Shown here in pieces: positions 30,285 to 59,262 of a DNA stretch of 64,000 bases. Every line of letters begins with the position of its first letter. Position 1 is the first letter of the stretch. Source of the stretch: Patescibacteria group bacterium. Lineage in GTDB: Bacteria > Patescibacteriota > Patescibacteriia > 2-02-FULL-49-11. The stretch covers positions 1,254-65,253 of the forward strand of contig JBAZQN010000011.1 in assembly GCA_041645165.1 (NCBI GenBank). Direction: 5' to 3'. The notes beneath the pieces are model-generated. The model ran no database searches. It had not been told where the DNA came from and was given only the letters and a program-made list of their open reading frames with translations. A program made the position numbers and the translations under genes.

Positions 30285-30400
30285 ATAAGCCCCAAACCCC
30301 AATACCCAATGACCAATAAAATCCCAAATCCCAATATTTCAAATTGGTTATTTGGATTTTGAGTTTTATTGGAAATTGGGATTTGGACATTGGGATTTAA
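30285..30400. repeat. heptamer-periodic quasi-palindrome (ccccaaa/ccccaat/acccaat/gaccaat/aaaatcc… mirrored by …ttgggatttgg)
   Basis: Same family as 59150-59262 (shared string ggattttattggaaatt.gggatttgg) and the tracts at 28450 and 54215. Confidence 0.8.
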
Positions 30401-30403
30401 TCA

Positions 30404-30823
30404 ATGCCTATGCCCGACTGTCTTTTTTGCAAAATCGGCACACACGAAATCCAATCGAAAGTGGTGCACGAGGATAGCGAGACGATTGCATTCCTCGACA
30501 TTCATCCCTTGTCTGCGGGGCACACCGTGCTTGTTTCGAAAACCCACACGCCTACGGTGACGACCTTACCCTCGCATGCGCTTTCTCCGCTCATCGTGGC
30601 GGTGCAGCGCGTCACCCATATTATAGAATCAGCCCTCAAACCTGACGGCTTTAATATCGGATGGAATCATGGTGAAGCAGGAGGGCAGACTATAGGGCAT
30701 CTGCATATCCACATAATCCCCCGGTGGCAGGGCGACGGCGGAGGGTCCATCCATACCATCGTGCACAATCCGCCCGCGGAAGATTTGGAGTCGATTTATA
30801 AAAAATTAAAATCAGTCACATGA
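30404..30823 (+). CDS. HIT-family (histidine triad) hydrolase
   Basis: Histidine triad HLHIHIIP and N-terminal CLFCKI. Confidence 0.85.
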   Translation: MPMPDCLFCKIGTHEIQSKVVHEDSETIAFLDIHPLSAGHTVLVSKTHTPTVTTLPSHALSPLIVAVQRVTHIIESALKPDGFNIGWNHGEAGGQTIGHLHIHIIPRWQGDGGGSIHTIVHNPPAEDLESIYKKLKSVT

Positions 30824-30921
30824 GGTATTAGGCATTATGTATCAGGTATTAGGGAGTTGAAGTGCATAATACGTAATACGAAATACGTGATACGAAACCT
30901 TTGTACTATTAATATTTTAAT

Positions 30922-32175
30922 ATGCATTCTCATATAAAGGATATATCGTTCGCGCCTCAAGGGAAACGCCGCATTGAATGGGCTTCCCGCGAAATGCCCG
31001 TATTGAAGCTGATCGCGTCGCGTTTCCAAAAAGAGCAGCCTTTGAAAGGCGTGCGTGTTTCCGCGTGCCTGCATGTGACTGCGGAAACTGCTAATTTAAT
31101 GAAAACATTGCGCGCGGGCGGCGCTGAAGTGCTCCTCTGCGCTTCCAATCCGCTCTCGACCCAAGATGATGTGGCGGCAGCGCTTGTGAAAGAGGGGATG
31201 CCGGTGTTTGCCAAACGGGGGGAGGATCGCGCATCATTCTATCGCCATCTGGTGGCGGCGCTTGACCATCATCCTCAAATCACCATGGACGATGGGGGCG
31301 ACCTTATCTACCTTCTCCATACGAAACGCAAGTCGCAGCTGAAACAGGTTGCCGGCTCGTGCGAGGAAACGACAACCGGGGTGATACGGCTGCGCGCCAT
31401 GGAGAAAGAGGGAAAGCTACGCGTGCCGGTCATTGACGTGAATGATGCCAAAACCAAGCATTTTTTTGATAACCGATATGGCACCGGGCAATCTACCGTG
31501 GACGGCATTGTGCGCGCGACTAACGTGCTCCTCGCAGGCAAGGTTTTTGTGGTTGCGGGATATGGATGGTGCGGAAGGGGGCTTGCCATGCGCGCGCGCG
31601 GCATGGGTGCCCGCGTGGTGGTGACGGAAGTGGATCCGGTTGCCGCGATTGAAGCGGTGATGGACGGATATGAAGTGAAATCCATGGCAGCAGTGGCGGC
31701 GGAAGGAGACATTTTTGTAACCGCGACCGGCGATGTGAGCGTGGTGCGCAAAGAGCACATGCTGCGCATGAAAGACGGGGCGATCCTTGCGAACACGGGG
31801 CATTTCAATGTGGAAATTGACGTCCAAGACCTTGAGAAAATAACGAAAGCGAAGAAGGCAGTGAGGGAGAACGTAGTTGAATTTACATTAAAATCAGGCA
31901 TGCGGCTCAATCTTATTGCAGAGGGCAGGCTTGTCAATTTAGCCGCTGCCGAAGGGCACCCTTCCGCAGTCATGGACATGAGCTTTGCCAATCAGTCTTT
32001 ATCAGCAGAATACCTTTGGCTTCATCGGGGCACGCTCCTGCCGAAGGTGTACCATGTGCCGCAAGAAATAGACGAACGCATTGCTACATTGAAGTTGAAG
32101 GCGATGGGAGTCAGGATAGATACCTTGACTGCTAAACAGGAGAGGTATCTCCAGAGTTGGAGAGAGGGAACTTAG
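30922..32175 (+). CDS. ahcY: adenosylhomocysteinase
   Basis: 417 aa with full-length SAH-hydrolase architecture (substrate domain, NAD domain [11 protein letters not shown]). Confidence 0.9.
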
Positions 32176-32251
32176 TTGTTTTCGTATTAGTGAACGGCTT
32201 GATTAAGAAATGTCAATCCGTAATACGTGATACGTAATACTTAATACCCCA

Positions 32252-33115
32252 ATGATCGACCTCCACACCCACTCGCTCCACTCCGACGGCACGGAGACGC
32301 CGCGGCAGCTGGTGGAGCGCGCAGAAAAAGCGCATCTTGCCTTATTTGCCATTGCAGACCATGATACGGTTGCAGGACTTGAGGAAGCGGTGGCTGTCGC
32401 GCGTGAGCTTCAAGTGCGGCTGCTGCCCGCGATTGAGCTCACGGTTGACCTTCATGGCGGCCACGTGCACATACTAGGTTACGGGATTGACTGGCAGAAC
32501 AAGGAATTGCGAGAAGCGCTTGTATGGCGGCAAGAAGGGCGGCGCGTGCAATTTTATGAGAAGGTGCGGCTCGCCAATGAACGGTTGCGCGCTGACGGCA
32601 AAAGCCACTTGGACGCAGAAGCACTCTTAAAAACCATTCAGGGGATTCCGGGAAGGCCCCACATCGCGCACGCGATTGTAGCCAAAGGGTGGGAACCGCA
32701 TTTCCGTCCTGCATTTGATAAGTATTTACTTGACTATGTGCCTGAGACCACCGCGTTTAAATCCCAGCAGGCGATTGAGCTCATCCATCGCGCAGGCGGC
32801 ATTGCGTCACTTGCCCATCCGGGTTCGAGTGAGATAGGATTGGGGAGATTTGCGAAGACCGAAAAAGAGGTAAGTGGTGCGCTTAAGGAATTGATCGCGC
32901 AAGGAATTGATGGAGTAGAAGCTTGGACTCCCGCGCATACGTTTGAAACGCGCGTATTCTATGAAAAGCTGGCGCAGGAGTTGCATCTCATCATAACCGG
33001 CGGCACCGACTGGCACGGACCCACGTTTGACGCGCCGGCGCCGGGGGAGTTTGAGATACCGGATGAGGTATGTAATAAATTAAAGAGCGCACTGAAGATT
33101 GATAATCCTTTTTAA
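32252..33115 (+). CDS. PHP-domain metal-dependent phosphoesterase
   Basis: N-terminus MIDLHTHSLHSDG (HxH) plus later His/Asp ligands. Confidence 0.8.
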   Translation: MIDLHTHSLHSDGTETPRQLVERAEKAHLALFAIADHDTVAGLEEAVAVARELQVRLLPAIELTVDLHGGHVHILGYGIDWQNKELREALVWRQEGRRVQFYEKVRLANERLRADGKSHLDAEALLKTIQGIPGRPHIAHAIVAKGWEPHFRPAFDKYLLDYVPETTAFKSQQAIELIHRAGGIASLAHPGSSEIGLGRFAKTEKEVSGALKELIAQGIDGVEAWTPAHTFETRVFYEKLAQELHLIITGGTDWHGPTFDAPAPGEFEIPDEVCNKLKSALKIDNPF

Positions 33116-33119
33116 GTAT

Positions 33120-34130
33120 ATGCGCATTTTTGTCACAGGCGGAGCAGGATTCATGGGATCGAATTTTGTTCATTACCTCCTCGGGAAATATCCGGGGTAT
33201 GAAGTATTGAATTTTGATAAATTGACCTATGCGGGAAATTTGGAAAATGTGCGTGATCTTGAAACCGATAAGCGCTACCAATTCATCAAGGGAGACATTG
33301 CAGACGAGAAAGCGGTAAGAGGCGCAATGGAGGCTTTTAAGCCAGACGCGGTGATAAATTACGCCGCGGAAACGCATGTGGACCGCTCGATCCAAGCACC
33401 GCGCGATTTTTTATTCACCGATGTGATTGGCACCTACACGCTCCTTGAAGCGGTGAGAGAATTTAACGTGACCCGTTTTATCCAGATTTCCACCGATGAG
33501 GTGTATGGCAGCACCACGCAGGGGAAATTCAGCGAAGAGAGCAGTTTTAATCCTTCAAGCCCTTATTCGGCATCAAAGGCGGGAGGGGATCACATGGTGA
33601 TGGCGTATTGGAGGACGTATAAGGCGCCCGTCATCCGCACTCACTCGTGCAATAATTTTGGCCCCTTTCAGTATCCGGAAAAAATTATTTCATTGTTCAT
33701 CACCAATATCTTGGAAGGCAAGAAGGCACCCTTGTACCAAGGCGGAGAAAAAAATGTGCGCGAATGGATTTATGTGGAAGACCATTGCCGCGCCATTGAC
33801 CACATCCTCCATTATGGGGAATTGGGCGAGGTGTATAATATCGGATCCGGCGATGAGATCGCCAATATTGACCTCACTAAGCGTCTTCTGCAGTTATTGC
33901 ATGTGGGCGAGGAGATGATAGAATATGTGACTGACCGTCCGGGGCATGATTACCGCTATGCCTTAGACTCGAACAAATTGCGCGAGCTTGGCTGGGCGCC
34001 GAAATGGTCGTTTGAGGAGGCGTTAGCGGAGACCGTGGAGTGGTATAAAACACATGCAATCTGGTGGAAGAAATTAAAAAATAAGGATTTTGATAAGTAT
34101 TATAAAAAGCAGTATGGAGAGAGAGTTTGA
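33120..34130 (+). CDS. rfbB: dTDP-glucose 4,6-dehydratase
   Basis: MRIFVTGGAGFMGSNF…, YxxxK and a TDE-type catalytic triad region. The ORF track starts at 33099, and the ATG at 33120 is the likelier start. Confidence 0.9.
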   Translation: MRIFVTGGAGFMGSNFVHYLLGKYPGYEVLNFDKLTYAGNLENVRDLETDKRYQFIKGDIADEKAVRGAMEAFKPDAVINYAAETHVDRSIQAPRDFLFTDVIGTYTLLEAVREFNVTRFIQISTDEVYGSTTQGKFSEESSFNPSSPYSASKAGGDHMVMAYWRTYKAPVIRTHSCNNFGPFQYPEKIISLFITNILEGKKAPLYQGGEKNVREWIYVEDHCRAIDHILHYGELGEVYNIGSGDEIANIDLTKRLLQLLHVGEEMIEYVTDRPGHDYRYALDSNKLRELGWAPKWSFEEALAETVEWYKTHAIWWKKLKNKDFDKYYKKQYGERV

Positions 34131-34154
34131 AATTATTGTGTGTAAAAATGCTCG

Positions 34155-34240
34155 TGATGGGACGATTTTATTCGGCGTCGCGATCTAGCAGCTTGATGCG
34201 CCTTTCCGCCTCAAAAATCGCCCATCCCTCGCTTCATAGG
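34155..34240 (+). repeat. repeat family S copy 3
   Basis: Outer stem gatggg…cccatc. The internal acgatttt/aaaatcgc change is compensated on both arms. Confidence 0.8.
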
Positions 34241-34245
34241 TTTTT

Positions 34246-35289
34246 ATGCCTATTTTAGATAAGGGGATATTACAAAAATATAAGAAAGGGGATGAGTGGC
34301 GTTGGTTGTGGAAACTCCATCCCGGGCATTTGCGGTGGAATGGAGGAGGGAAGAATAGCGTGCTAAGGGATCGAAACGCGTATCCCTGGTGGCAGCGTGT
34401 TGCCCATTGGTTTATTCCTCATGAACGAAACGGCTTCAGGCCCCATGCGGTGCGGCACAACGCGTTAATCGGCTATTCGTTTATTCTCATTGCGGCAAAA
34501 GTGGGATTAACGCTCACGCTCTTCTTGAGCGTTCCCAATGAAGCGTATTTTTCTACACTAACCGCCCAGCGGGTGATAGATCTTACCAACCAGGCGCGGG
34601 TGGAAATCGGTATCGCACCCTTGACGGTGAATCCGCTTCTTGAACGGTCTGCTGGCTTGAAAGTGGAAGATATGGCGAAGATGGGTTATTTCACGCATAC
34701 GAATCCTAAAGGAGAAAGCCCGTGGGAGGATTTCAAGCGGGCAGGGTATGAATATACGTATGCCGGAGAAAACCTCGCAATGGATTTTCGGGAAGCGGAA
34801 GAAGTTGTACAGGCATGGATGGAGAGCCCGAAACACCGCGAAAATATACTTAATCCAAAATATCAAGAAATCGGCATTGCGGTGACTACGGGCACGGTGA
34901 AGGGGAGGACGGTGAGTTTGATTGTGCAGCATTTTGGCACGTCGTATCTTGCGGGAACAAAACGCGAATTTGCGCCTGCCGCGCTTGGCGCGGCCACGCA
35001 GAGCCCCCAGGGAGAGCCTGCGCTTGCCGCCGCAGCCACCCAAGTCACGCTTACCCAAGGCGCCACGCCATTTTCCCTGAATAAGCTCATGAACGTGGCA
35101 TTATGGACTTTCGCGGTGTTTGCGCTCGGGATGATCGTACAGCTCTTGCTCACCATTGTCATCCATATAAAAATACAGCACCGCGGGACGATTTATGCGT
35201 GCCTCGCGGTGATTGCGCTCGCGGTAGGGTTGCTCTATACGAATGTCCACTTCTTGGAGCGTCTGGGCAGCGTGCCGATTATATTTTAA
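34246..35289 (+). CDS. CAP/SCP/PR-1-domain protein with a C-terminal membrane anchor
   Basis: Motifs GYFTHTNPKGESPWED … GENLA … HRENILNPKYQEIGIAV match the CAP-domain signature. Confidence 0.75.
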   Translation: MPILDKGILQKYKKGDEWRWLWKLHPGHLRWNGGGKNSVLRDRNAYPWWQRVAHWFIPHERNGFRPHAVRHNALIGYSFILIAAKVGLTLTLFLSVPNEAYFSTLTAQRVIDLTNQARVEIGIAPLTVNPLLERSAGLKVEDMAKMGYFTHTNPKGESPWEDFKRAGYEYTYAGENLAMDFREAEEVVQAWMESPKHRENILNPKYQEIGIAVTTGTVKGRTVSLIVQHFGTSYLAGTKREFAPAALGAATQSPQGEPALAAAATQVTLTQGATPFSLNKLMNVALWTFAVFALGMIVQLLLTIVIHIKIQHRGTIYACLAVIALAVGLLYTNVHFLERLGSVPIIF

Positions 35290-35423
35290 TGGTATCAGCT
35301 TTTTAATACTATTGCGTAAAGTAGCGTATCATGTAGCGCGAAGTAGCTTCTATGCCCTATCAGTAGAAGCCACTTTTCGCCAGCACATGGGCCAGTGTGC
35401 GCCACTAACGTGAAGAGTTTAAT

Positions 35424-36821: not shown

Positions 36822-36906
36822 AGAACAAATGAGAATACCTTAATTCTGACTCATTGTCCATTGTTTTTCAAGTGCATGCGATTATGGTATTATAGTAGCA
36901 CTGTCC

Positions 36907-37138
36907 TATGCCCCGCAATACAACATCCAAGAGGGAGGCAGAGACATTAGCGCAGAGAATGGATAATATAAGGGAATCTGCATGAGTGCGCTAATAGGTA
37001 TTTTTATGGCCTCCCTCACCGATCGCCAAACGTTTTCTCCCATCATAATTATGCATCACTACTCCAAGGTCGCATTCATTCTAGGTATTTATACCATGCC
37101 AGCCGCGTTTGGCGTTGGATGTTGATATACGGGGTATG
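36907..37138 (+). promoter_or_regulatory. conserved ~230-nt structured 5' leader L, copy 1 (upstream of the Wzy-like gene)
   Basis: Shares tatgccccgYaatacaacatccaagagggaggca … gcctccctcaYcgatcgcca … ggcgttggatgttgatatacggggt(ATG) with 50649-50876. The 5' end is complementary to the segment covering the start codon. Confidence 0.6.
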
Positions 37139-41600: not shown

Positions 41601-41700
41601 GGTAATTGAAAATCAAAATGTAAAATTCAAAACTCAAAATTATGGAGTCCCGCATTAGCGGGACGTAATACCATCATTTTGATTTTTGATTTTTGGATTT
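41600..41700. repeat. heptamer-periodic quasi-palindrome (aaaatca repeats) around the hairpin gagtcccgcattagcgggac
   Basis: Mirror arms aatcaaaatgtaaaattcaaaactcaaaat / attttgatttttgatttttggatttt. Related to 45565-45660. Confidence 0.75.
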
Positions 41701-42730
41701 TAACTTTATTTATATGTCCGTATTTTACGTTTCAGGGAGGCCAAATATTATTGTGACCGGCGCGGCAGGGTTTTTGGGATCGCATCTTGTCGAGATGCTT
41801 CTCAAAAGCGCGAACGTGATCGGCATAGATAATTTTATCACCGGAGACGAACGAAATATCGACACCTTCCTTTCTGACCCTCATTTTGAATTTATCCGCC
41901 ATGATCTGACCGTGCCCATTGATGTGCGGGTATTGCCAGAGCTTAAAAAATTTAAAGCAGCGGTTCAAGGAATCCAGCAGGTCTATCACCTCGCATGCCC
42001 GACCTCGCCAAAAGAATATAACCGCATACCGATTGAGACGCTTAATGCCAATGCCTATGCCACTAAAAATATGCTTGACTTGGCACAGCAGCATAAGGCA
42101 AGATTCCTGTTCACCTCCTCGAGTGCGGTCTATGGCGAACCGAGCGAAAATGCCCCGGTGCCGGAGAAGTGGTGGGGGTACGTCGACCCTGTCGGGCCTC
42201 GTTCGGCGTATAATGAGGGAAAGCGTTTTGCCGAAGCGATCTGCGCCAATTACCGGAATACCTACAGCATGGAGGTGGTAATTGTGAGGATTTTCAATAC
42301 GTTCGGGCCGCGGATGAAGCTCAATGACGGCCGTTTAATTCCTGATCTTATACGGGCGGCATTCAGGAACGAGCCGTTGGTGATCAATGGAGATAAAAAT
42401 GCGATTTCGACATTTTGTTATGTCACCGACATGATCGATGGCATATTGAAAGCGATGGAGGCGAATATGAATCAGCCGGTGAATCTGGGAAGCGATGACC
42501 CAAAACCGATCCGTGAAGTCGCAGAGATGATAGTGCGCCTTGCGAAGTCTACATCTATCATTGAATATCAACCGCACTTGCCCTATACCTCCCGCCAGCT
42601 TACCCCTGATATTGGGGTTGCGCGCAATGAATTAAGCTGGTGGCCCATGGTGGCGCTGGAGGAGGGATTGAGCCAAACAGTCGAATATATGCGCTCCATG
42701 ACGCATGTGTATGATATTGAAAGAGAGTAG
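41693..42730 (+). CDS. UDP-glucuronate decarboxylase (UXS-type NAD-dependent epimerase/dehydratase)
   Basis: VTGAAGFLGSHL, FEFIRHDLTVP, YHLACPTSP, YGEP…YNEGKR match UXS closely. The start may be the ATG at 41714. Confidence 0.8.
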   Translation: MDFNFIYMSVFYVSGRPNIIVTGAAGFLGSHLVEMLLKSANVIGIDNFITGDERNIDTFLSDPHFEFIRHDLTVPIDVRVLPELKKFKAAVQGIQQVYHLACPTSPKEYNRIPIETLNANAYATKNMLDLAQQHKARFLFTSSSAVYGEPSENAPVPEKWWGYVDPVGPRSAYNEGKRFAEAICANYRNTYSMEVVIVRIFNTFGPRMKLNDGRLIPDLIRAAFRNEPLVINGDKNAISTFCYVTDMIDGILKAMEANMNQPVNLGSDDPKPIREVAEMIVRLAKSTSIIEYQPHLPYTSRQLTPDIGVARNELSWWPMVALEEGLSQTVEYMRSMTHVYDIERE

Positions 42731-42734: not shown

Positions 42735-42875
42735 AAAATATAAATCGAAGTTCTAAATCCGAAACCCTAAACCCTAAACACCCCATCGACTCGGCTCAGG
42801 GTGACAAAGCGGTTGTCATGGTGAGCCGAGTCGAACCATGTTTAGAGTTTAGAGCTTAGAATTTAGAGTTTATTC
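42735..42875. repeat. heptamer-periodic quasi-palindrome (ctaaatc/cgaaacc/ctaaacc… mirrored by gtttaga repeats) with central hairpin cgactcggctca…tgagccgagtcg
   Basis: Arms homologous to 55305-55445. Sits upstream of metK. Confidence 0.8.
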
Positions 42876-44652: not shown

Positions 44653-45597
44653 ATGGAAATAATTGTCACCGGCGGAGCGGGGTTTATCGGATCGCATGTT
44701 GTGGATGCGCTGATTGGGCGTGGATTTCAGGTAACGGTGATTGATAATCTTATTACTGGCAAGCGGGCAAACGTGCACAAAATAGCTAAGCTGATTAGGT
44801 TGGATGTCAGAAACCCTAAACTTAATAATTTATTTAAAACAATAAAACCTGTATACGTTTTTCATCTTGCAGCGCAAATGGACGTGAAAAAATCATTGAG
44901 AGAGCCGCTTTTTGACGCGAGTGTGAACATATTAGGATCGCTCAACGTGATTAAATCAGCTGCTGATGTTGGGGTGAAAAAATTTATCTTTACCTCAACT
45001 GGCGGCGCAGTCTACGGCGACACATCAATTATTCCCACACCCGAAACAGTACCCGAGGCGCCCATTTCACCATATGGGGTGGCAAAGCTCGCGGTAGATA
45101 AATACCTCCATCAATTTTGGCACGTTGCAGGCATGCCCTATGTGAGCTTGAGATTTGGCAACGTGTATGGACCGCGCCAGCGTGCTGACGGCGAGGCGGG
45201 CGTGGTGGCAATCTTTGCAGGAAGGCTCGTACGCGGATTGCCCTGCGCGATAAATGGGAGCGGTAAACAAACGCGCGATTTCGTATATGTGGGCGATGTA
45301 GTAGATGCGGCTATGAAGGCAATGTATAAACCTTTTGTGGGCACGGTCAACATTGCAACAGGGAAGGAATCATCGGTAAATACGGTATATATGTTGTTGG
45401 CGAAAAACATACAGACGCGTTTGAAGGCCACACATAATCCTGCGATTCAGGGGGAGCAAATGCGCAGCGTGCTAGATTGGAAAAAAGCGAAAAAAGTGCT
45501 AGGATGGAAGCCGAAGGTGAATTTAGAGGAAGGATTGAGGAGAACTATTGCATGGCATTGTCATAATGCAAAAATCAAAAATCAAAAATCAAAATGA
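44653..45597 (+). CDS. NAD-dependent epimerase/dehydratase (GalE-like)
   Basis: VTGGAGFIGSHV, YGVAK (YxxxK). 314 aa. Confidence 0.8.
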   Translation: MEIIVTGGAGFIGSHVVDALIGRGFQVTVIDNLITGKRANVHKIAKLIRLDVRNPKLNNLFKTIKPVYVFHLAAQMDVKKSLREPLFDASVNILGSLNVIKSAADVGVKKFIFTSTGGAVYGDTSIIPTPETVPEAPISPYGVAKLAVDKYLHQFWHVAGMPYVSLRFGNVYGPRQRADGEAGVVAIFAGRLVRGLPCAINGSGKQTRDFVYVGDVVDAAMKAMYKPFVGTVNIATGKESSVNTVYMLLAKNIQTRLKATHNPAIQGEQMRSVLDWKKAKKVLGWKPKVNLEEGLRRTIAWHCHNAKIKNQKSK

Positions 45598-45660
45598 TAG
45601 ATCAAAATTTATAAATTTTGTATTCTCATTTTGCATTTTGAGATTTACATTTTGATTTAT
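45565..45660. repeat. heptamer-periodic quasi-palindrome ((aaaaatc)n … attttgatttt)
   Basis: Overlaps the epimerase C-terminus (…KIKNQKSK). Confidence 0.75.
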
Positions 45661-46336
45661 GACTGTGGTAGTTGTAATTCCCGCTTTTAACGAATCTCGG
45701 ACCATTGCCGAAGTTATCCATGGCTGTTTGCAGCACGCGAGTGAGGTCATGGTCATAAATGACGGTTCGTGCGATGATACTGCGCTGCGCGCGCGTCAGG
45801 CAGGCGCTGCTGTTTTTGAGCATATGGTGAACAGGGGATATGGCGCGGCATTGCAAACCGGCATACAGGCGGCGCTTATGCGCGGTGCGGACATCATCGT
45901 GACCATTGATGCGGACGGCCAGCATGAGCCGGAAGAGATCATAAAGGTTATTGAGCCGCTCCAAAAAGGCGAAGCTGATATCGTGATAGGCGACAGGTTC
46001 GGTACGCAGTCAAAGCGCGAAGGAATGAGTTTATTAAGAAAAGCCTACATTACCGCGGGGAACCTCCTCACATGGATCCTCTACGGCGTATGGCTCTCTG
46101 ATACCCAGTCGGGATTCCGCGCTTATACGCGCAATGCGTTAAGAAATTTGCAGACTCATGCACAGGGTATGGAATTTTCTTCTGAAATCATTGGAGAAGC
46201 GGCTAGACTGGGTTTGAGAATTGCGACTATCCCCATCACAGTGCGCTATACTGACTATTCGATAGGAAAGGGGCAGAATATATCTACAGGTATTGGGACT
46301 GCATTTCGGCTGTTCTTAAGAAGAATTTTGAGATAA
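45659..46336 (+). CDS. GT2 glycosyltransferase (polyprenol-phosphate sugar synthase/DPM1-like)
   Basis: VVIPAFNESRTI … VINDGSCDDT … DADGQH. Confidence 0.8.
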   Translation: MTVVVVIPAFNESRTIAEVIHGCLQHASEVMVINDGSCDDTALRARQAGAAVFEHMVNRGYGAALQTGIQAALMRGADIIVTIDADGQHEPEEIIKVIEPLQKGEADIVIGDRFGTQSKREGMSLLRKAYITAGNLLTWILYGVWLSDTQSGFRAYTRNALRNLQTHAQGMEFSSEIIGEAARLGLRIATIPITVRYTDYSIGKGQNISTGIGTAFRLFLRRILR

Positions 46337-46337: not shown

Positions 46338-46450
46338 ATAAAGCGTCGAGGTATAAGAAACAAGATACAAGAAACAAACATCAAGCTACAAGATACAATA
46401 ACCAATATTGGTGTTTGTGAGTTGGTTATTGGTGATTATTTGATGATTGT
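46338..46450. repeat. heptamer-periodic quasi-palindrome (aagaaac/aagatac … mirrored gtttcttgg)
   Basis: A related tract lies at 8985-9020. Confidence 0.7.
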
Positions 46451-46453
46451 TTC

Positions 46454-46858
46454 TTGGTAATTGATTATTTACATATGGTTTTCCAGATCATCGCGTGCGC
46501 GTTAATCATATTGATTGTGGGGCGGATCGCATGGCAATTCCGCCGAGGCACGATCAGCGGGAAAGAATTTTTCTTTTGGTCGTTTTTTTGGGTGCTTGCC
46601 GCGGCGGCCATACTCGTGCCCAACGCCTTAACCATGATCGCGAATATATTAGGCATCGGGCGGGGGACTGACCTCGCATTTTACGGCTCATTCGTCATCG
46701 TCGCCTATGTGCTCTTCAGAATTGTGGTACGGATGGATAAGATGGAAAGGGATATCACAAAAGTAGTGAGACATTTGGCGCTTGATGATACGCATCAGGT
46801 ATCACGTATTAAGTATCAGGGGACTGACCGCGATACGCTTGAGAATCGTGATACGTAA
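46454..46858 (+). CDS. small 4-TM membrane protein (DUF2304-like, GT2-associated); the C-terminal ~25 aa are encoded by a taatac heptamer repeat
   Basis: Hydrophobic profile. Nucleotides 46775-46875 are the cgtgatacgtaatacctaatacc repeat. Confidence 0.4.
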   Translation: MVIDYLHMVFQIIACALIILIVGRIAWQFRRGTISGKEFFFWSFFWVLAAAAILVPNALTMIANILGIGRGTDLAFYGSFVIVAYVLFRIVVRMDKMERDITKVVRHLALDDTHQVSRIKYQGTDRDTLENRDT

Positions 46859-46889
46859 TACCTAATACCTAATACTTACTATTATCACC

Positions 46890-52208: not shown

Positions 52209-52502
52209 GTATCTCATACGTACGCGCTCACTGTCCATCAACACCCCCACCACACCTCCCCCTTTATATCATCAAGATATGGCGAAGCCATAGGGGGAGG
52301 ACAAGGCGTGTGGTCTCCCCCTTAGGCGCCGTAAAAAAATAACATATCCCGCCATCTACGCCGTACGTCAACAAAATAAGGACAAACCTATGGGACAAGT
52401 GAAATGTTATTTTTTTAAGCGCCCTTATCAAGGGGGAGATCAAGAGGGGGGTTTAAACCGCGAGGATGGCGATGCCCCCAGTGAGCGCGTACATCTCATA
52501 CC
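52209..52502. repeat. MITE-A copy 2 (TIRs ggtatctcatacgtacgcgctcactg / cagtgagcgcgtacatctcatacc) with nested 25-bp and 100-bp elements
   Basis: Its interior aligns with copy 1 except for the inserted catcaagatatggcgaagccata (also at 1466) and the 100-bp repeat (also at 7186). Confidence 0.75.
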
Positions 52503-52537: not shown

Positions 52538-52564
52538 TTAGCACTCTAACCATGCGAGTGCTAA
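52538..52564 (+). promoter_or_regulatory. CIRCE operator (TTAGCACTC-N9-GAGTGCTAA), HrcA binding site
   Basis: Perfect match to the 9-N9-9 CIRCE consensus, about 50 nt upstream of hrcA. Confidence 0.9.
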
Positions 52565-52611
52565 TCCCTTAAAGAGTATAATATGCATAAGTATTTTGTT
52601 ATTTGACGGGT

Positions 52612-53298: not shown

Positions 53299-53323
53299 TA
53301 TTTTGTATAGTGCATTGCTATTC

Positions 53324-53497
53324 AGATTCCGATTTTCAACGTCATTCCCGCCCCGTATCGCGGTACGGGGCAAGCTCCGGCGGGAATCCAGACGCCGTCC
53401 TCGACCGAGATCGGGGAAAATCAAAAGAAAACACCGATTTTTTGTTTGTTTTTTGTCTGGATTCCAGATCAGGTCTGGAATGACATTATCGGAATTA
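53324..53497 (-). repeat. MITE-B copy 2, between hrcA and grpE
   Basis: Reverse complement of 17868-18038 at about 90% identity. Confidence 0.85.
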
Positions 53498-53524
53498 GGT
53501 TAACAATTTAGTATAATAAAAATT

Positions 53525-54079
53525 ATGGATGATGCACCATCTCAAAACGCAACACCACAGGCAGCTGCACAGCCGGACTCGGGCCACTCGCCATCGGACA
53601 TCATTACCATGAGCAATGAAGAATATGAAAAATTAAAAACGCAGGCCGTCGAATACCTTGACGGATGGAAACGCGCGAAAGCCGATTATATAAATTTTAA
53701 AAAAGAAACAGAGGAGCGCCAGAGTGAATTTATAAAATTTTCCGCCCAAGCCGCACTCATGGGGTTTATCCCCCTCTATGACCATTTGAAGGGCGCATTT
53801 GCGCATCTGCCGCCGGAACGGAATAAGGATCCATGGATTGACGGAGTGCTCAAGATTAAGCAGGAATTTGCTTCATATTTGCGCGATGCGGGCATAGAAG
53901 AAATTCTTACCATAGGTAAACCATTTGATCCGACTAAACATGAATCAGTAGGCATTGAGATTGAAAAAGAGGCGCCTGTCCATACGGTGGTCAAAGAAAT
54001 AAAAGGAGGTTATACCCTGTATGGGAAAGTGATTATTCCCGCGCAAGTGGTCATCAGCGAACAAGTACCGTTACCATAA
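53525..54079 (+). CDS. grpE: nucleotide exchange factor GrpE
   Basis: Coiled-coil N-terminus, …YINFKKETEERQSEF…, C-terminal beta domain. Position is upstream of dnaK. Confidence 0.9.
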   Translation: MDDAPSQNATPQAAAQPDSGHSPSDIITMSNEEYEKLKTQAVEYLDGWKRAKADYINFKKETEERQSEFIKFSAQAALMGFIPLYDHLKGAFAHLPPERNKDPWIDGVLKIKQEFASYLRDAGIEEILTIGKPFDPTKHESVGIEIEKEAPVHTVVKEIKGGYTLYGKVIIPAQVVISEQVPLP

Positions 54080-54214
54080 AGTTTTTATATAATCCTCTCC
54101 TGCAAATACCCAGTACACACTGCTTGTATGAAATGTGCCTCTCGTAAGAATTAAATGGTAACGGCACAAGGAGAGCGATCAGGCACTGCAACAACAAAGG
54201 CCGAAACAAATGAA

Positions 54215-54340
54215 AAATCCCAAACCTGAAATCCCAATATAAATTGGAATTTAAGATTTATTTGGAATTTGTCCCGCACCTTGAATCTTTTTTTCTAAGG
54301 TAAGCGGGATCCCGCCGGAGCGGGAGATATTAAGATTTGG
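54215..54340. repeat. aaatcccaa heptamer tract plus MITE-C copy (gtcccgcaccttgaatctttttttctaaggtaagcgggatcccgc)
   Basis: Reverse complement of 28405-28460. Mirror arms aaatcccaa…ttggaatttaagattt. Confidence 0.75.
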
Positions 54341-54423
54341 AATTTAATAAGGTATTTTTTCCAATTCAGTTTATTATTGAATAATCTCTCTGGCGTGCAC
54401 CAGTGAGAATTAAAGGAGGCAGT

Positions 54424-54852
54424 ATGACTCTTATTCCATGGCGTCCCATGGTCGAACCCTTCGACGATATGACGAGGTTTTTCGACGATATGTGGCCTAC
54501 GGGGACTTTTCGGTCCTTGGCAGGCATGGTTCCCGCGATCGATGTCTACGAGGATGTGGACAATGTGTATGTGGAGACACCGCTTCCCGGCGTGGATCCG
54601 GAAAAGGTTACGGTATCGGTAGAAAATGACGTCCTTACCATTGAAGGGAAATCTCAGCGCAAGACAGAGGTGGAGGATAAAAAGTTCTATCGTAAAGAGG
54701 TGAGCTATGGCAGTTTCCACCGTGCAGTGGCGCTTCCGTCCGCAGTAAAGGGCGAAGAGGCAAAAGCAACCTATGAGAAAGGCGTGCTGAAAGTTGCGAT
54801 TCCGAAAGAAGAGCGCGCGAAACCGAAGACGGTCAAGGTGGAGGTGAAGTAA
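54424..54852 (+). CDS. Hsp20/alpha-crystallin small heat-shock protein
   Basis: Alpha-crystallin domain (VDVYEDVDNVYVETPLPGVDPEKVTVSVENDVLTIEG…). SD aaaggagg 6 nt before the ATG at 54424. Confidence 0.85.
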   Translation: MTLIPWRPMVEPFDDMTRFFDDMWPTGTFRSLAGMVPAIDVYEDVDNVYVETPLPGVDPEKVTVSVENDVLTIEGKSQRKTEVEDKKFYRKEVSYGSFHRAVALPSAVKGEEAKATYEKGVLKVAIPKEERAKPKTVKVEVK

Positions 54853-54997
54853 TAGTGAGGGGTTGGAAGAGTAGAGAAGTTAGAATCTAGAAGCTGGAAT
54901 TTAGGATTTGAAATTTAATTTTCCTCGATTTCGATTTTGGCGTGCACTCTCGTGATATCCGCGGGAGTGACGGGAGGATCGAAAGAACATTTTATCA

Positions 54998-55324
54998 GTG
55001 ATCAGGCGTATGACACCAAAAGAAAACAATAAAAATGAAGCATTGATGCTTTTACGGGAATGCCCTTCATGCCGTTCGCGGTATACCCACACATCGGTAC
55101 AGGTGCTTTCTGCCAATGAGAAAGGGTCGCTGGTATCGTTTACCTGCGGTGAGTGCCGACTTGATGTCTTGGTAGCGGTATCGCCGATGCCTTTCGGGCT
55201 GGTGGGCACTGGGATGCCGACTGACTGCGCGACCGACGAAGTGATGAGATTTATGGATTCAAACGAAATTACCGAAGATGATGTGATAGAGGCGCATACG
55301 TTGCTTGAAAATCCGAAATCCTAA
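54998..55324 (+). CDS. hypothetical zinc-ribbon protein
   Basis: CPSCRS…CGECRL double CxxC. 108 aa. Confidence 0.4.
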   Translation: MIRRMTPKENNKNEALMLLRECPSCRSRYTHTSVQVLSANEKGSLVSFTCGECRLDVLVAVSPMPFGLVGTGMPTDCATDEVMRFMDSNEITEDDVIEAHTLLENPKS

Positions 55325-55445
55325 ATCCGAAATCCTAAACAAGCTCAAAACACAAAATTCGAAATATTCCTATCCCTTAATATTTCGATGATTTGAATCT
55401 CGAATTTTGGATTTGTTTAGGGTTTAGAGTTTAGAATTTAGTATT
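55305..55445. repeat. heptamer-periodic quasi-palindrome upstream of dnaK (ctaaatc/cgaaatc/ctaaaca … gtttagg/gtttaga/gtttaga)
   Basis: Homologous to 42735-42875. Confidence 0.8.
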
Positions 55446-55452
55446 TATATAT

Positions 55453-57363
55453 TTGAGTATGTCAAAAATTATAGGCATAGACCTCGGTACTACCAATTCA
55501 GCGGTTGCCGTCATTGAAGGCGGCAGCCCAAAAATATTAGAAAACAGCGAAGGCGCGCGCACCACGCCCTCCGTTGTGGCCGTCAATAAGAACGGCGAGC
55601 GGTTCGTGGGGATGACGGCGAAACGCCAGGCAGTCACCAATCCCCAAAATACCATTTACTCGGTAAAGCGCCTTATCGGGCGCAGATACGATGACCCCGA
55701 AGTGCAGCGTTCGCAAAAAACCCTGCCTTACAGAATCGTGAAGTCGGGTGAAGGCGTGAAAGTGGCCATGGCAGAGAAGGAATATTCCCCACAGGAGATT
55801 TCCGCAATGATTTTGCAGAAGATCAAGGCGGACGTGGAGGCAAGACTGGGCGAAAAGGTGACGGAGGCGGTGATCACCTGCCCGGCGTATTTTGACGATT
55901 CGCAGCGTAAAGCAACGAAAGAAGCAGGCGAGATCGCGGGATTTACCGTGAAAAGGGTGCTCAATGAACCTACGGCTGCGGCGCTGGCGTATGGATTCCA
56001 GAAGAAGAAGGATGAAAAGATCGCCGTGTATGATTTGGGCGGCGGCACCTATGACATTTCCATTCTAGAAGTATCCAGCGATACCGTGGAGGTAAAGGCC
56101 ACCAACGGGGACACGCACCTTGGAGGGGATGATTTTGACCAAAGGGTCATTGATTGGATTATTGCAGAATTCAAGAAGGATCAAGGCATCGACCTTTCGA
56201 AAGACACGCTCTCGCTCCAGCGCATCAAAGAGGCCGCGGAAAAGGCGAAGATCGAGCTGTCCACGGCCATGGAAACGGAAATTAACCAGCCGTTTATCAC
56301 CTCTGGCGCTGACGGCCCAAAGCATCTGCTCTTGAAGCTGACCCGGGCGAAATATGAGGATCTGGTGGGCGATCTGATTGAAAAAACCAAAGAGCCGATG
56401 AAGAAAGCATTGAGCGACGCAAAGCTCACCGTGAAGGACATTGATGAAATTGTCATGGTGGGAGGAATGACGAGAATGCCCAAAGTATTAGCGATGGTGG
56501 AAGAGTTTTTCGGGAAGAAGCCGCATATTGGCGTAAACCCCGATGAGGTCGTGGCGGCAGGCGCGGCGGTTCAAGCAGGCATCATGCAGGGTGAGGTGAA
56601 AGACGTATTACTGCTTGATGTGACTCCTCTTACGCTCGGCATTGAAACGCTGGGCAGCGTGGCCACGCCTATCATTCAGAGGAATACCACCGTCCCGACG
56701 AAAAAATCACAGGTCTTTTCGACCGCCGCTGACGGGCAAACCTCCGTGGAGGTGCACGTGGTGCAGGGAGAGCGCCCCTTAGCGCACGATAATAAGAGTT
56801 TGGGGAAATTCATTCTTGACGGCATTCCTCCCTCGCCGCGCGGGATCCCGCAGGTTGAGGTTACCTTTGACATTGACGCGAACGGCATACTCCATGTCAC
56901 CGCAAAAGATCGCGCCACGGGCAAAGAGCAGAAAATCACCATCACCGCGTCCACCGGCCTTTCCAAAGATGAGATTGAGCGGATGAAAAAAGAAGCGGAA
57001 GCGCATGCCGTTGACGACGCGAAAAAGAAAGAGCAGATCGAATTAAAGAATACTGCCGACAGCATGGTCTATACCACCGAAAAGACCTTGCGCGATGCGG
57101 GCGACAAGGTATCGGCAGAGGTGAAGAAGGGGATCGAGGAGAAGGTGGAGGCGCTCAAAAAGGTGAAAGACGGCGACGACACCGATGCGATAAAGAAGGC
57201 AACCGATGCTCTCTCTCAGGAAATCCAAAAGGTAGGCGAACAGCTTTATAAAGCCGCCGCGGAAGCGAAAGGAAATACGGAGGGAGAGGTGAAGGCAGAA
57301 GATAAACAGGAGGATAAAAAAACTGTAGATGCGGAGTACAAGGATGTGAAGGATGATAAATAA
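55453..57363 (+). CDS. dnaK: molecular chaperone DnaK (Hsp70)
   Basis: [18 protein letters not shown], and full-length Hsp70 domain structure. Confidence 0.95.
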
Positions 57364-57364
57364 T

Positions 57365-57450
57365 GACGTATCCCGTATTATGTATTACGTTATGTCGTGA
57401 TATCTATATACGTAATACCTAATACCTAATACCTAATACTTCAACCACTA
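57365..57450. repeat. heptamer repeat tract (cgtaatacctaatacctaatacctaatac)
   Basis: Same word family as 30835-30905, 32180-32250 and 46775-46875. Confidence 0.8.
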
Positions 57451-57755
57451 TGATTGATAATAAATCGGGACAAACACAGATTCAAATTCGTGCGTCAGAC
57501 GAGGTGTTGCGAGGCTTGTACGCCAACGCGATGCAGGTGGTGCATACTAAAGAAGAGTTCATAATTGATTTTCTTAATCTCTATCCGCACCAAGGGCTTG
57601 GAGTAGTGAATGCGCGGGTGTTGACCTCGCCGGGGCATGCGAAAAGGATTGTGGCCGCGCTCGCGGACAATATTAAGAAATATGAAGCGCAATTCGGCGC
57701 GATAGAGGCGGCGCAAGAGCCTGCGGAGGGCAAGGAGATGGGATTTAAGGCATAA
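57450..57755 (+). CDS. hypothetical small protein (DUF3467-like) between dnaK and dnaJ
   Basis: 101-aa ORF with operon position only. Confidence 0.4.
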   Translation: MIDNKSGQTQIQIRASDEVLRGLYANAMQVVHTKEEFIIDFLNLYPHQGLGVVNARVLTSPGHAKRIVAALADNIKKYEAQFGAIEAAQEPAEGKEMGFKA

Positions 57756-57766
57756 CTTCGTTCGTC

Positions 57767-57848
57767 CTGGACAATTTTCTCGGCGGCGCGATCTAGCAGC
57801 TTGATGCGCCAGACCGCCTCGTAAATTGCCAGGACTCACTTTTAGGGA
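57767..57848 (+). repeat. repeat family S copy 4
   Basis: Outer stem cctgg…ccagg. Confidence 0.8.
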
Positions 57849-58035
57849 GGATATATAGATCTCACACTATGACATGGCACTGCGCTTAAGGCAGACCGCG
57901 ATTCTTGTTGCGGAACTCGTCCCGCTATGCGGGACTCAAACAGTCCTCACGGCGAACACTGTCTCCCCGCCAAAATAAGGCGGGGAGAGTAGTTGGTGGA
58001 GGTACGATTCACAAGATTTTTAAGTGAAGTATTAT

Positions 58036-59130
58036 ATGGCAAAAGATTACTATAGTATTTTGGGTGTTTCTAAGAATGCCAGTCAAGAGGAGATCAAGAA
58101 GGCATTCCGCAAGCTCGCGCACCAGCATCATCCAGACAAGGGCGGCGGCAATGAAGAAAAGTTTAAAGAAATAAATGAGGCATATCAGGTGCTCTCTGAC
58201 ACACAGAAGAGAGAGCAGTATGACCAGTTTGGCACGACGTTTGAAGGAGGGACGGGGGGCGGTGCACAATGGCAGGATTTTGCGCAAGGAGGGCCTTTTG
58301 GAGGGTTCCGCACGAACGTGGATTTTAATGATATCGGCGACCTGTTCGGCGATATGTTCGGTTTCGGGTCTGGGGGGCGGGGAAAGCGGGGACGCAAGCG
58401 CAAGGAAGGAAGGGACTTGGAAATCGATACCACCATAGAATTCATAGATGCGGTGCGCGGAGTGACGAAGCGCATCACGCTTGAGAAATTGCAGGAATGC
58501 GAGTCGTGCCGCGGATCAGGGAGCGAGGGAAAGGGCGGAGTGAAAACCTGCAGCACATGCGACGGCGCAGGCGTGGTGGAGCAAGCCCAGCGTACCTTTT
58601 TTGGCACGTTCACTTCGCAATCAGTGTGCCCCGCGTGCCATGGCGAAGGAAGCGTCATAGAAAAGCCATGCGGCAAGTGCCGCGGTGAAGGCCGTGTGCT
58701 CAAAGAACATGCATTTGAAATAACCATTCCGCCGGGCGTGGCAGAAGGCACCACCCTGCGCATGGAAGGGAAAGGAGAGGCAGGCGTGCGGGGTGCCTCG
58801 GCGGGGAACCTTTTTATCACGGTGCATATAAAACCTGACAGCCGCTTCCGGCGGGAACATGACGATATCCACAGCGACGCGAGCATCACTTTGCCGCAGG
58901 CAGCGCTTGGCGATTCGATGAGAGTGCCTACCGTGGATGGGCTGGTGGAAGTGAAAATCCCTTCAGGCACGCAGTCAGCCACGGTGATACGCTTGAAAGG
59001 CAAAGGCATACCGCACCTTGAATCCGCGGGAAGGGGAGACCATTTATTGCATGTCACGGTTGCGGTACCCACGCGTTTAAACAGGAAACAGAAAGAGCTT
59101 TATGAGGCGCTTGCGAGGGAAGAGGAGTAA
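58036..59130 (+). CDS. dnaJ: molecular chaperone DnaJ
   Basis: J domain with HPD (HQHHPDKGG), G/F-rich linker, four CxxCxGxG zinc-finger repeats. Confidence 0.95.
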
Positions 59131-59149
59131 TACCTCGTAACTTAATGTC

Positions 59150-59262
59150 AAAATCCAAATGTCAAATAAATGTCCAATATTCAATTCCCAATGACCAATT
59201 TTCGGATTTGAGGGTTTGGATTTTATTGGAAATTTGAAATTGGGATTTGGGATTTAACGACA
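59150..59262. repeat. heptamer-periodic quasi-palindrome (aaatccaaat … cccaatgaccaat … ggattttattggaaatttgaaattgggatttggg)
   Basis: Homologous to 30285-30400. Confidence 0.8.

Follow-up and report, generated by a model that had tools for sequence, protein, structure and literature searches.

Results

At many gene boundaries in a 64-kb stretch of a Patescibacteria (Uhrbacteria-like) contig (analyzed in full and referred to here as the window), the intergenic DNA is built from tandem 7-nt words. What are these spacers, and how might they have arisen? Period-7 arrays were found in 16 spacers, including all 13 that had been picked out in a sequence-only reading of this DNA and three others (8985-9018, 29303-29359, and 54869-54921). 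Tandem Repeats Finder returned approximately 25 period-7 rows, at positions given in that reading. Using sliding autocorrelation at lag 7, we detected 9 tracts with at least 22/28 matches; at the same threshold, the other lags from 1 to 21 gave no tracts apart from a single one at lag 6 and another at lag 18, and 50 third-order Markov shuffles gave no period-7 tract. A laxer threshold yielded 13 period-7 tracts and none with periods of 5, 6, or 8 to 11. With shuffles at zero and other periods nearly absent, the arrays are real and stand above background. The possibility, raised earlier, that they are assembly artifacts is excluded because Logan contigs of run SRR8449827, the product of a second assembler, were 100% identical over six spacers and because orthologous elements are present in independent samples too.

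Two arms in mirror-image arrangement were present in 11 of the 16 spacers, which thus show the convergent-pair feature known from Xanthomonas. A repeat search recovered arms of 28 to 55 nt with 73 to 79% complementarity at 30286-30399, 45560-45663, 55309-55446, 46355-46469, and 57363-57437, and arm complementarity scored higher at register shifts of 7n than at shifts of 1 to 3, bearing out the mirror-arm architecture originally described. Irregularities are mirrored between arms. Some centers are loop-less perfect palindromes, and others, as had been noted, hold a GC hairpin (for example, a 22-nt hairpin within 42786-42834). Within rows of genes that share a direction, the elements fill the interval between one stop codon and the following start codon (Table 1), and arrays do run into coding sequence at the places proposed, namely, the 3' ends of the epimerase and DUF2304 genes and the start at 28474. 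Two pairs of spacers had been called homologous. For the pair at 30285 and 59150, positions 30308-30400 align with 59169-59257 once gaps are introduced; for the pair at 42735 and 55305, the resemblance is limited to the right arms (42839-42873 versus 55414-55448; 31/35 positions).

Table 1 Heptamer elements in the window
Feature	Coordinates	Strand	Description
Single array	8985-9018		AAGAAAC/AAGATAC type; divergent spacer upstream of hydrogenase small-subunit gene; word common to element H
A	28392-28507		AAATCCN-type array entering the 28474 start codon
A, insert	28410-28465		56 nt, GC rich, two hairpins, splitting the array
Array	29303-29359		AGATTCN; interrupted by a GC double hairpin of 40 nt (29307-29346)
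B	30286-30399		CCCCAAT/ATTGGGA palindrome; 51-nt arms, 75% complementary; fills spacer upstream of HIT gene
C	30822-30898		GGTATTA/TAATACG palindrome; HIT gene/ahcY spacer
D	32179-32248	+	ORF-deleted cassette form; cassette intact in L087/L155
D, left-arm stub	32179-32189
D, ORF remnant	32190-32237		Last 15 codons and stop of the TIGR02436 ORF
D, right arm	32219-32248		TAATACG
E	41604-41701		CAAAATN/NATTTTG palindrome; GC hairpin center 41645-41664
F	42745-42873		CTAAACC/GTTTAGA palindrome upstream of metK; 49-nt GC hairpin center 42786-42834
G	45560-45663		CAAAAAT/ATTTTGN palindrome; loop-less perfect center 45603-45620; overlaps epimerase stop and GT2 start
H	46349-46469		AAGAAAC/GTTTCTT palindrome; center CCAATATTGG
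I	46787-46879		GGTATCA/TAATACC palindrome overlapping DUF2304 3' end
J	54213-54348		AAATCCC/TTGGAAT palindrome upstream of hsp20; right arm split by a 56-nt GC insert (54271-54326), the reverse complement of 28410-28465
Single array	54869-54921		TAGAANN/GGAATTT type, after hsp20
K	55305-55446		AAATCCG...CCTAAAC/GTTTAGG...GTTTAGA palindrome, 55-nt arms, upstream of dnaK
L	57363-57441		CGTATTA/TAATACC palindrome; dnaK/DUF3467 gene spacer
M	59147-59257		AAATCCA...GACCAAT/ATTGGAA...TTGGGAT palindrome, after dnaJ

The sequence-only reading could match these tracts to no repeat class that it could name, and here it was mistaken. The elements are heptanucleotide tandem repeats, a class long known in cyanobacteria (STRR) and Xanthomonas (GGGAATC): they consist of 7-nt tandem units by both Tandem Repeats Finder and lag-7 autocorrelation and are intergenic, present at many loci, and drawn from few word families. 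The cyanobacterial repeats were reportedly described by Mazel and colleagues in 1990 as short tandemly repeated repetitive sequences. Like the GGGGATT, GACCAAT, and TTTTGAA repeats of Nostoc, the window elements are intergenic 7-nt tandem units that often lie at start codons and fall into several word families within a genome, and they share with Nostoc the words CCCCAAT and TGACCAA/GACCAAT, the latter as found upstream of Nostoc recO. Few mirror pairs are reported for Nostoc PCC 7120, however, whereas most arrays in the Patescibacteria window are mirror pairs. Xanthomonas GGGAATC arrays are intergenic and typically have ~4 units (Rehm et al. 2015, PMC4692102); they occupy ~185 sites, 70 to 75 cases being convergent inverted pairs, and orthologous sites keep the repeat type while differing in length and sequence between species (PMC4692102). 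In both systems, convergent pairs are able to form stem-loops, but Xanthomonas has a single word per genome, with G-quadruplex potential, and the window has at least five, mostly AT rich and few of them G4 capable. The TAACTGA repeats of Beggiatoaceae (PMC4679880) are likewise intergenic heptamer arrays that end just before start codons and are patchily distributed across phyla, but they use one word and are nearly all direct and one-sided (inverted in 1/170).

Other identities fit less well. REP/REPIN-RAYT systems follow the same logic: a repeat that is abundant between genes is also found, in inverted orientation, on either side of a gene that has few copies and is inherited vertically (see below). 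The heptamer elements nonetheless have no conserved unit beyond the 7-nt word and no Y1 transposase, and the product of the gene that they flank is a small helical protein for which no enzymatic activity is known. We rejected REP/REPIN-RAYT identity since copies share a word rather than a unit of 20 to 40 nt and no transposase adjoins the arrays. Identity as MITEs was rejected as well (same-word elements align in part only, with no consistent target-site duplication), as was that of contingency (phase-variable) SSRs, the unit number being invariant within populations at relatives' loci. In an Rfam 15 search of the whole window at the gathering score, the sole match was tRNA-Glu at 5023-5094, and no element was matched.

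[quoted passage not shown] The ORF lies between inverted repeats at this locus in L087, L155, and L089. In L087 and L155, whose genes are 77 to 89% identical in DNA to those of the window, it matches PF05635 (E value, 5.6e-34) and TIGR02436 (1.9e-31) and is flanked by CGTATTA and TAATACG arms. Element D retains the arms and the 3' end of the ORF; this is the only ORF remnant among the 16 elements, and no intact four-helix-bundle gene was found in the window. We then examined 18 TIGR02436 loci from five phyla. Inverted complementary heptamer arms (octamer arms in one case) flank 14 of the 18, with scores of 13 to 31.5 against shuffle maxima of at most 13.5; two loci have direct arrays and two are one-sided. 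Lag-7 scores of at least 16/21 were obtained for 12/17 upstream and 15/17 downstream flanks, compared with 2 to 6% of background windows; two of the loci show period 8.

One of these TIGR02436 cases is Xanthomonas XCC0516 (PDB 2GSC; E value, 1.8e-19), located between accB and accC. Its start codon is covered by a GGGAATC array (Rehm et al. supplementary table, PMC4692102), a link not remarked on by Rehm et al. 2015 (PMC4692102). Its complementary right arm is present in L167 to L169 and Dyella. Gene and both arms are retained between accB and accC across two Lysobacterales families, and conservation of the arms is at least as high as that of the gene in Xanthomonas and Dyella. The arm word tracks the protein clade. 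Lysobacterales have GGGAATC and Patescibacteria have GAAT-type words, and a pair of cyanobacterial proteins with 74% identity both have GCTAAAA. In the window, most words (AAATCCC, CTAAACC, CAAAAAT, and AAGAAAC) are unlike the GAAT-type word of the sampled Patescibacteria clade. In 120 Patescibacteria and 120 Lysobacterales homologues, the N and C termini are translated arm units. A tblastn search found the protein in 34 of 72,556 plasmids, mostly cyanobacterial (Nostoc, 13; Calothrix, 4). Judged from sequence, the TIGR02436 four-helix-bundle protein is now a candidate partner for heptamer repeats.

All elements are predicted to fold into long hairpins made of 5- to 7-bp helices separated by single mismatches, with z scores of -3.1 to -7.5 in 7 of 8. 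In the L087 and L148 loci, both minimum-free-energy and centroid folds pair the arms around the entire ORF (z, -3.4 and -7.4). The antisense strand folds about as well as the sense strand, and the latter showed no significant excess of G:U over A:C in either the ORF-bearing arms (21 versus 10; P = 0.07) or the window elements (11 versus 22; P = 0.08). Terminal inverted repeats with a predicted closing stem, as present in the elements, are a feature of ribosomal IVS carrying this gene family, in which the terminal inverted-repeat stem is cut by RNase III (PMC4990558). In the 23S rRNA IVS with an S23p/PF05635 ORF (Leptospira and Coxiella; PMC4990558), the gene family similarly sits in the loop of a long inverted-repeat stem, and the host transcript, although essential, tolerates the insert. 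The heptamer elements differ in lying between protein-coding genes, in having stems made of heptamer repeats, and, for the window copies, in being without the ORF; the window contains no rRNA and thus no 23S rRNA helix 25 or 45 location. RNase III cutting has been demonstrated for the rRNA elements only and is predicted by analogy for the heptamer stems.

The heptamer elements turn over between species and are stable within populations. At gene junctions shared with close relatives, they are replaced, nested, invaded at the center, or missing. In L171, element H is missing (the spacer is 7 nt), a GAAT-type palindrome occupies the site of element I, and element K is kept; in L170, element K is replaced, and element M shares its outer ends while having a replaced center. 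Element L is missing from both. Unrelated GC elements have also been inserted inside arrays: L170 shows an empty site for the 56-nt insert of element J, and the AGATTCN array is unbroken in L155. Even orthologous genes at one locus can carry different arm words (L087 versus L089). Within populations, by contrast, no array length variation was seen among the 7 to 10 samples available per locus (10, 10, and 7; loci from relatives, not the window), and samples with identical arms differed by SNPs elsewhere. Across 120 arrays, there was no position-specific conservation within units (mean z, 0.16; P = 0.42).

Discussion

We favor, with a probability of roughly 0.55, the reading that the spacers are palindromes of the STRR/Xanthomonas-GGGAATC kind and represent the ORF-less form of a widespread, IVS-like TIGR02436 cassette. 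Direct support comes from the architecture, the ORF-bearing orthologue of one element, the bracketing of the gene in five phyla, the link between word and clade, and the pattern of turnover and stability. In a transcript, pairing of the arms would give a long stem with regularly spaced mismatches, as in the ribosomal IVS with the TIGR02436 family. The stem would juxtapose the flanking stop and start codons, and we propose that the insert is therefore tolerated inside operons. The stem would probably be processed by RNase III or serve as a hairpin for processing or stability. In the DNA, tandem amplification in steps of 7 or 14 nt would lengthen the arrays, the arms would be copied onto each other, and the center would be a hot spot for new inserts, with the four-helix-bundle protein as the likeliest putative cognate factor. 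Several observations weigh against this reading: the window has no intact four-helix-bundle gene and a remnant in just one element, most of its words are unlike that of the sampled Patescibacteria clade, G:U is not in significant excess and both strands fold similarly, loop-less perfect centers point to an origin in DNA, and some loci have direct flanks or period 8. The elements may have no host function.

Two readings would give the elements a role in expression of the neighboring genes. They could be intrinsic bidirectional terminators of an unusual kind, as had been suggested, given the stable predicted hairpins directly after stop codons and the paired arms directly 3' of the dnaK stop in two Acidobacteriota. 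This is very improbable: in no element is a GC-rich stem followed by a T tract, terminator-like sites are no more numerous than in shuffles (21 versus 19.7 and 4 versus 6.2), the single good site (59876-59901) lies outside the elements, and conserved operons, accBC among them, contain elements. A role as signals for translation initiation or another step in expression of the downstream gene, proposed for the TAACTGA repeats of Beggiatoaceae (PMC4679880) and for Nostoc heptamers close to start codons (10.1101/2022.06.06.494920), would account for right arms that end 0 to 25 nt, mostly 4 to 12 nt, upstream of the next start codon, for the fact that most such starts have no evident Shine-Dalgarno sequence, and for the purine-rich upstream arms of the four-helix-bundle genes, with their GGAG/AGGA motifs. 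We nevertheless regard such a role as improbable, since at the same junctions close relatives have different words or lack an element, both polarities are found before genes, and promoter-like sites are not enriched.

The remaining alternatives concern origin. Arrays might be functionless by-products of replication slippage favoring 7-nt units, with quasi-palindrome template switching mirroring the arms and with the gene and GC hairpins merely inserting at centers. Heptamers are an overrepresented long SSR in many bacteria, for which a polymerase-footprint cause has been put forward (Mrazek 2007, cited in PMC4692102), and this reading also fits the loop-less perfect centers, the even spread of variation across unit positions, elements that are present, absent, or replaced depending on the relative, unrelated GC elements inside arrays, and the two genes within direct arrays. 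It is hard to reconcile with constant array length among population samples, with arm words whose inheritance follows the protein clade across long distances, with arms that encode the protein termini, and with arms that are no less conserved than the gene in Xanthomonas and Dyella; moreover, most dnaK neighborhoods of other bacteria have no period-7 arrays, which counts against a universal polymerase property. Overall we think it unlikely. A hairpin-templated mutational process may have produced the arms; it is supported by the mirrored irregularities and by the loop-less perfect centers, the latter pointing to a DNA-level origin.

Somewhat less doubtful is a role for the arrays as putative DNA or RNA binding sites of a pentameric four-helix-bundle protein that would maintain, spread, or regulate them, on the analogy of RAYT and REP/REPIN. 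The words follow the three clades named above, the sole Xanthomonas TIGR02436 locus recovered (accB-accC) bears the word of ~185 genomic sites and is retained with both arms in two families, the protein occurs on plasmids, and the Nostoc literature postulates a partner for heptamer repeats. Against this, L087 and L089 differ in arm word at one locus, units show no position-specific conservation, and the protein has no known catalytic motif. More broadly, we tentatively suggest, at odds still well short of even, that bacterial heptamer repeats have their cognate partners in the TIGR02436 proteins, the two forming a gene-plus-repeat system of many phyla like RAYT/REPIN in which the proteins recognize, maintain, or generate arrays of their own word, the ORF-less palindromes of the window being nonautonomous offspring. 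If true, such a system would account for the STRR repeats, described in 1990, as well as for a large protein family of unknown function. The binding-site reading overlaps the IVS-like cassette reading that we prefer; in the former, the protein is the cause of the arrays.

The window spacers are heptamer-repeat palindromes

Tandem Repeats Finder returned ~25 period-7 rows at the places in the window listed by the sequence-only reading, and sliding autocorrelation at lag 7 gave nine tracts with at least 22 of 28 matches. No period-7 tract reached this score in 50 third-order Markov shuffles; the signal noticed in the sequence-only reading is therefore real. Nearly all of the other lags from 1 to 21 were without any tract at this score, and a laxer threshold gave 13 tracts at period 7 and none at period 5, 6, or 8 to 11. 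An inverted-repeat search confirmed the proposed mirror-image architecture: arms are 28 to 55 nt long and 73 to 79% complementary, and their complementarity survives register shifts of 7n but is lost at shifts of 1 to 3. In total, we count 16 elements, including three (unlettered in the table) beyond those previously listed, and 11 of the 16 are two-armed palindromes.

Period-7 elements and other repeats and features of the window (window coordinates)
Feature	Position	Word or remark
A	28392-28507	AAATCCC/GGGATTT
B	30286-30399	AAATCCC/GGGATTT
C	30822-30898	TAATACG/CGTATTA
D	32179-32248	TAATACG/CGTATTA
E	41604-41701	CAAAAAT/ATTTTGN
F	42745-42873	CTAAACC/GTTTAGA
G	45560-45663	CAAAAAT/ATTTTGN; loop-less perfect palindromic center at 45603-45620
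H	46349-46469	AAGAAAC/GTTTCTT; loop-less perfect palindromic center at 46402-46411
I	46787-46879	TAATACG/CGTATTA
J	54213-54348	AAATCCC/GGGATTT
K	55305-55446	CTAAACC/GTTTAGA; part AAATCCC/GGGATTT
L	57363-57441	TAATACG/CGTATTA
M	59147-59257	AAATCCC/GGGATTT
Unlettered	8985-9018	AAGAAAC/GTTTCTT
Unlettered	29303-29359	AGATTCN
Unlettered	54869-54921
40-nt GC double hairpin	29307-29346
56-nt GC-rich two-hairpin element	28410-28465, 54271-54326 (reverse complement)	~90% identical
~80-nt dispersed repeat	3350-3430, 15725-15805, 34150-34235, 57765-57850	GACAATTTT..TTCGGCG.CGCGATC.AGCAGCTTGATGCGCC..CCGCCTC.AAAATTGC
105-nt direct repeat	7182-7286, 52321-52425	99% identical
204-nt inverted repeat	17850-18047, 53314-53515	89% identical
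143-nt direct repeats	10569-10711, 11019-11161	99% identical
Low-GC island	18000-24500	GC 0.33-0.38
Tyrosine integrase gene	24495-25346

Each element fills its spacer, with its left end only a few bases from the upstream stop codon and its right end 0 to 25 nt (mostly 4 to 12 nt) upstream of the next start; some arrays extend into ORF ends, as had been noted. Every element is predicted to fold into a long hairpin of 5- to 7-bp helices with single mismatches at ~7-nt spacing. Predicted folding energies range from -18 to -52 kcal/mol, with z scores of -3.1 to -7.5 against dinucleotide shuffles in seven of the eight elements compared in this way. The GC-rich hairpin centers described earlier are present in E and F; some other centers are perfect palindromes, G and H among them. 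The irregular junctions of B and K are mirrored between both arms. Elements that share a word show only partial alignment, so they are not copies of a single master sequence. Directly 3' of element M, at 59262-59318, lie a GAGGAG Shine-Dalgarno sequence, a 10-codon ORF (MILYLLYFMV), and a promoter-like TTGTAC..TATAAT, followed by the next gene.

The window is part of a 66-kb metagenome contig, and its DnaK shares 96% identity with that of "Candidatus Uhrbacteria" RIFCSPLOWO2_02_FULL_49_11 (Patescibacteria). Contigs built by a second assembler from run SRR8449827 (Logan) were 100% identical across six spacers, and orthologous elements were present in independent samples; an assembly artifact is therefore excluded. 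One Logan contig of this run (L002) starts at window position 55310, within the left arm of K, so arrays of this kind break up short-read assemblies.

Heptamer repeats have been on record since 1990 for cyanobacteria, with later records from Xanthomonas, Beggiatoaceae, and Bacteroidetes; to our knowledge, their function, origin, and partner protein have no established answer. The first case came from Calothrix, GGGGATT is one of the heptamers of Nostoc, and the ~185 GGGAATC repeat sites of Xanthomonas include 70 to 75 cases of convergent inverted pairs (PMC4692102). TAACTGA arrays lie at start codons in Beggiatoaceae, cyanobacteria, and Bacteroidetes (PMC4679880), and a preprint on Nostoc proposes that a partner protein exists, "yet to be identified" (10.1101/2022.06.06.494920). 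The earlier statement that the spacers match no nameable repeat class is thus incorrect: they are heptamer-repeat palindromes, a kind already described though unexplained, found here at unusual density and in a new phylum. Among 80 control dnaK neighborhoods, the majority of genomes were without tracts and other periods were nearly absent; period-7 tracts recurred in Patescibacteria, Acidobacteriota, and Chloroflexota, often as inverted pairs and twice immediately 3' of the dnaK stop codon.

A four-helix-bundle gene between the arms of element D in relatives

Element D occupies the spacer between ahcY and a PHP gene, and we compared this spacer across relatives. In two of them (L087 and L155), whose genes are 77 to 89% identical in DNA to those of the window, the element D arms stand ~360 nt apart and enclose a 129-aa ORF matching PF05635 (E 5.6e-34) and TIGR02436 (E 1.9e-31), with a weak Avd match. 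Of this cassette, the window retains the right arm, a stub of the left arm, and the final 15 codons of the ORF; element D is therefore an ORF-deleted derivative. In a more distant relative (L089), the gene occupies the same site, its arms are different (GAATNAT and ATNATTC), and it is interrupted by an insert of ~80 nt that contains two short hairpins (L089 5727-5810). A profile of 120 homologues, run against the six-frame translation, revealed no ORF remnants in window spacers beyond element D, and none were found in the spacers of two further relatives (L170 and L171).

Heptamer arms bracket TIGR02436 genes in five phyla

The PF05635/TIGR02436 family has at least 7,700 matches, and we know of no established function for it. 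We examined 18 TIGR02436 loci, from Patescibacteria (four contexts), cyanobacterial plasmids (three of Nostoc, two of Calothrix, and one each of Pseudanabaena, Picosynechococcus, Geminocystis, and Anabaena), Azospirillum, Riemerella, Gemmatirosa, Xanthomonas, and Dyella. Inverted complementary flanks were found at 14 of the 18 (alignment scores of 13 to 31.5; shuffle maximum of at most 13.5), direct arrays around the gene at two, and a one-sided array at two; the direct, noninverted arrays are those of Gemmatirosa and Pseudanabaena. Lag-7 scores of at least 16/21 occurred in 12 of 17 upstream flanks and 15 of 17 downstream flanks, compared to 2 to 6% of background windows (17 of the 18 loci). 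The period is 8 instead of 7 in Picosynechococcus (L153) and Gemmatirosa (L162).

The genes are closely packed within operons: RNR beta/alpha, lepB/hisS, accB/accC, cas6/cas4 (twice), and cas10/cmr3. The cas6/cas4 cases are in Pseudanabaena and Anabaena 90 (L150 and L165), and the cas10/cmr3 case is in Picosynechococcus. XCC0516, solved as a pentamer (PDB 2GSC), belongs to the family (E 1.8e-19), and repeat 15 overlaps its start codon (Rehm et al., supplementary table, PMC4692102). In Xanthomonas and Dyella, a complementary right arm, missed by the search rule of Rehm et al., ends at the accC start codon. By tblastn, only 34 of 72,556 plasmids encode the protein, mostly cyanobacterial ones (e.g., Nostoc, 13; Calothrix, 4) plus four from Riemerella, and none of 50,697 phage records does.

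The arms encode the N and C termini of the protein. Homologues from Patescibacteria (120 sequences) mostly begin with MN[QNH]ES.. and end with ..IIH[ND]S, the translation of GAAT-type units; those from Lysobacterales (120 sequences) begin with M[EG]N[GR]ES, the translation of GGGAATC. The word GCTAAAA is common to two cyanobacterial proteins with 74% identity to each other. These clade-specific termini and shared words indicate that arms were inherited with the gene. The orthologous genes of L087 and L089 have different words, so the word-clade relation is not strict. The idea that units combine a conserved core with variable positions found no support in 120 arrays (mean z, 0.16; P = 0.42 by the Wilcoxon test); variation was even across unit positions. 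The physical link is consistent, with the same arms on either side of the gene in five phyla and a word that tracks the protein clade. We found no mention of it in the literature searched, of which our coverage was incomplete.

Probable ORF-less relatives of an IVS-like cassette

Several readings of the elements can be weighed together. Bidirectional termination, suggested by the sequence-only reading, fits poorly: the elements contain no canonical terminators or promoters and show no enrichment of them. As a test for selection on the sense RNA, the comparison of G:U with A:C pairs was not significant, with opposite signs for ORF-bearing and ORF-less elements. Sense and antisense folding energies did not differ consistently. 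Rfam at gathering score returned only a tRNA match. CRISPR, iterons, and MITEs were dropped on anatomy. Near the dnaK heptamer pairs of Acidobacteriota and other phyla, no four-helix-bundle gene was present within 10 kb.

The best-supported reading is that the window elements are ORF-less relatives of a cassette that carries the TIGR02436 gene and resembles the ribosomal intervening sequence (IVS). In minimum-free-energy and centroid folds of two ORF-bearing cassettes, the arms pair around the whole ORF, the same architecture as that of ribosomal IVS elements, which carry the same gene and have a stem that RNase III cleaves (PMC4990558). Such pairing would make the elements tolerable inside operons; RNase III may likewise cut heptamer stems, and the TIGR02436 protein may bind or make the repeats. 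The gene-repeat link opens both puzzles, the heptamers and TIGR02436, to tests in organisms that can be cultured, such as Nostoc and Xanthomonas campestris, where XCC0516 lies between accB and accC. In the annotation of candidate-phylum genomes, it explains odd N and C termini, contig breaks, and "low-complexity" spacers.

Turnover between relatives and stability within populations

In relatives with DnaK 87 to 96% identical, orthologous spacers usually hold a heptamer element, often with a different word. Compared with L155, spacers B and C have swapped word types; K persists in L171 and has been replaced in L170, and H and L are absent from relatives. At two loci (in L155 and L170), older AAATCC-type arms enclose a palindrome built from a new word, CAAAAGT. 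Within populations (10, 10, and 7 samples, at loci of relatives), arms showed no unit-number polymorphism, and SNPs were present in genes. Turnover at the scale of species is the best-supported reading.

GC-hairpin elements of 56 and 40 nt split arrays that are continuous in relatives. Both copies of the 56-nt element lie within AAATCC-type arrays, and the array is continuous in L170 at the second site; for the 40-nt element, the orthologous L155 array is intact.

Other repeats and islands

At least two of the four copies of the ~80-nt repeat are intergenic; it also occurs in L155 and L170 spacers and has no Rfam match. One copy of the 105-nt repeat lies upstream of hrcA, and one copy of the 204-nt repeat lies between hrcA and grpE. 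At 10514-11161, the 143-nt repeats and shorter copies bracket a DUF559 gene lodged among NiFe-hydrogenase genes. The low-GC island (GC is ~0.48 elsewhere) carries minus-strand genes, including Fic-domain and radical-SAM genes, and adjoins the tyrosine integrase gene.
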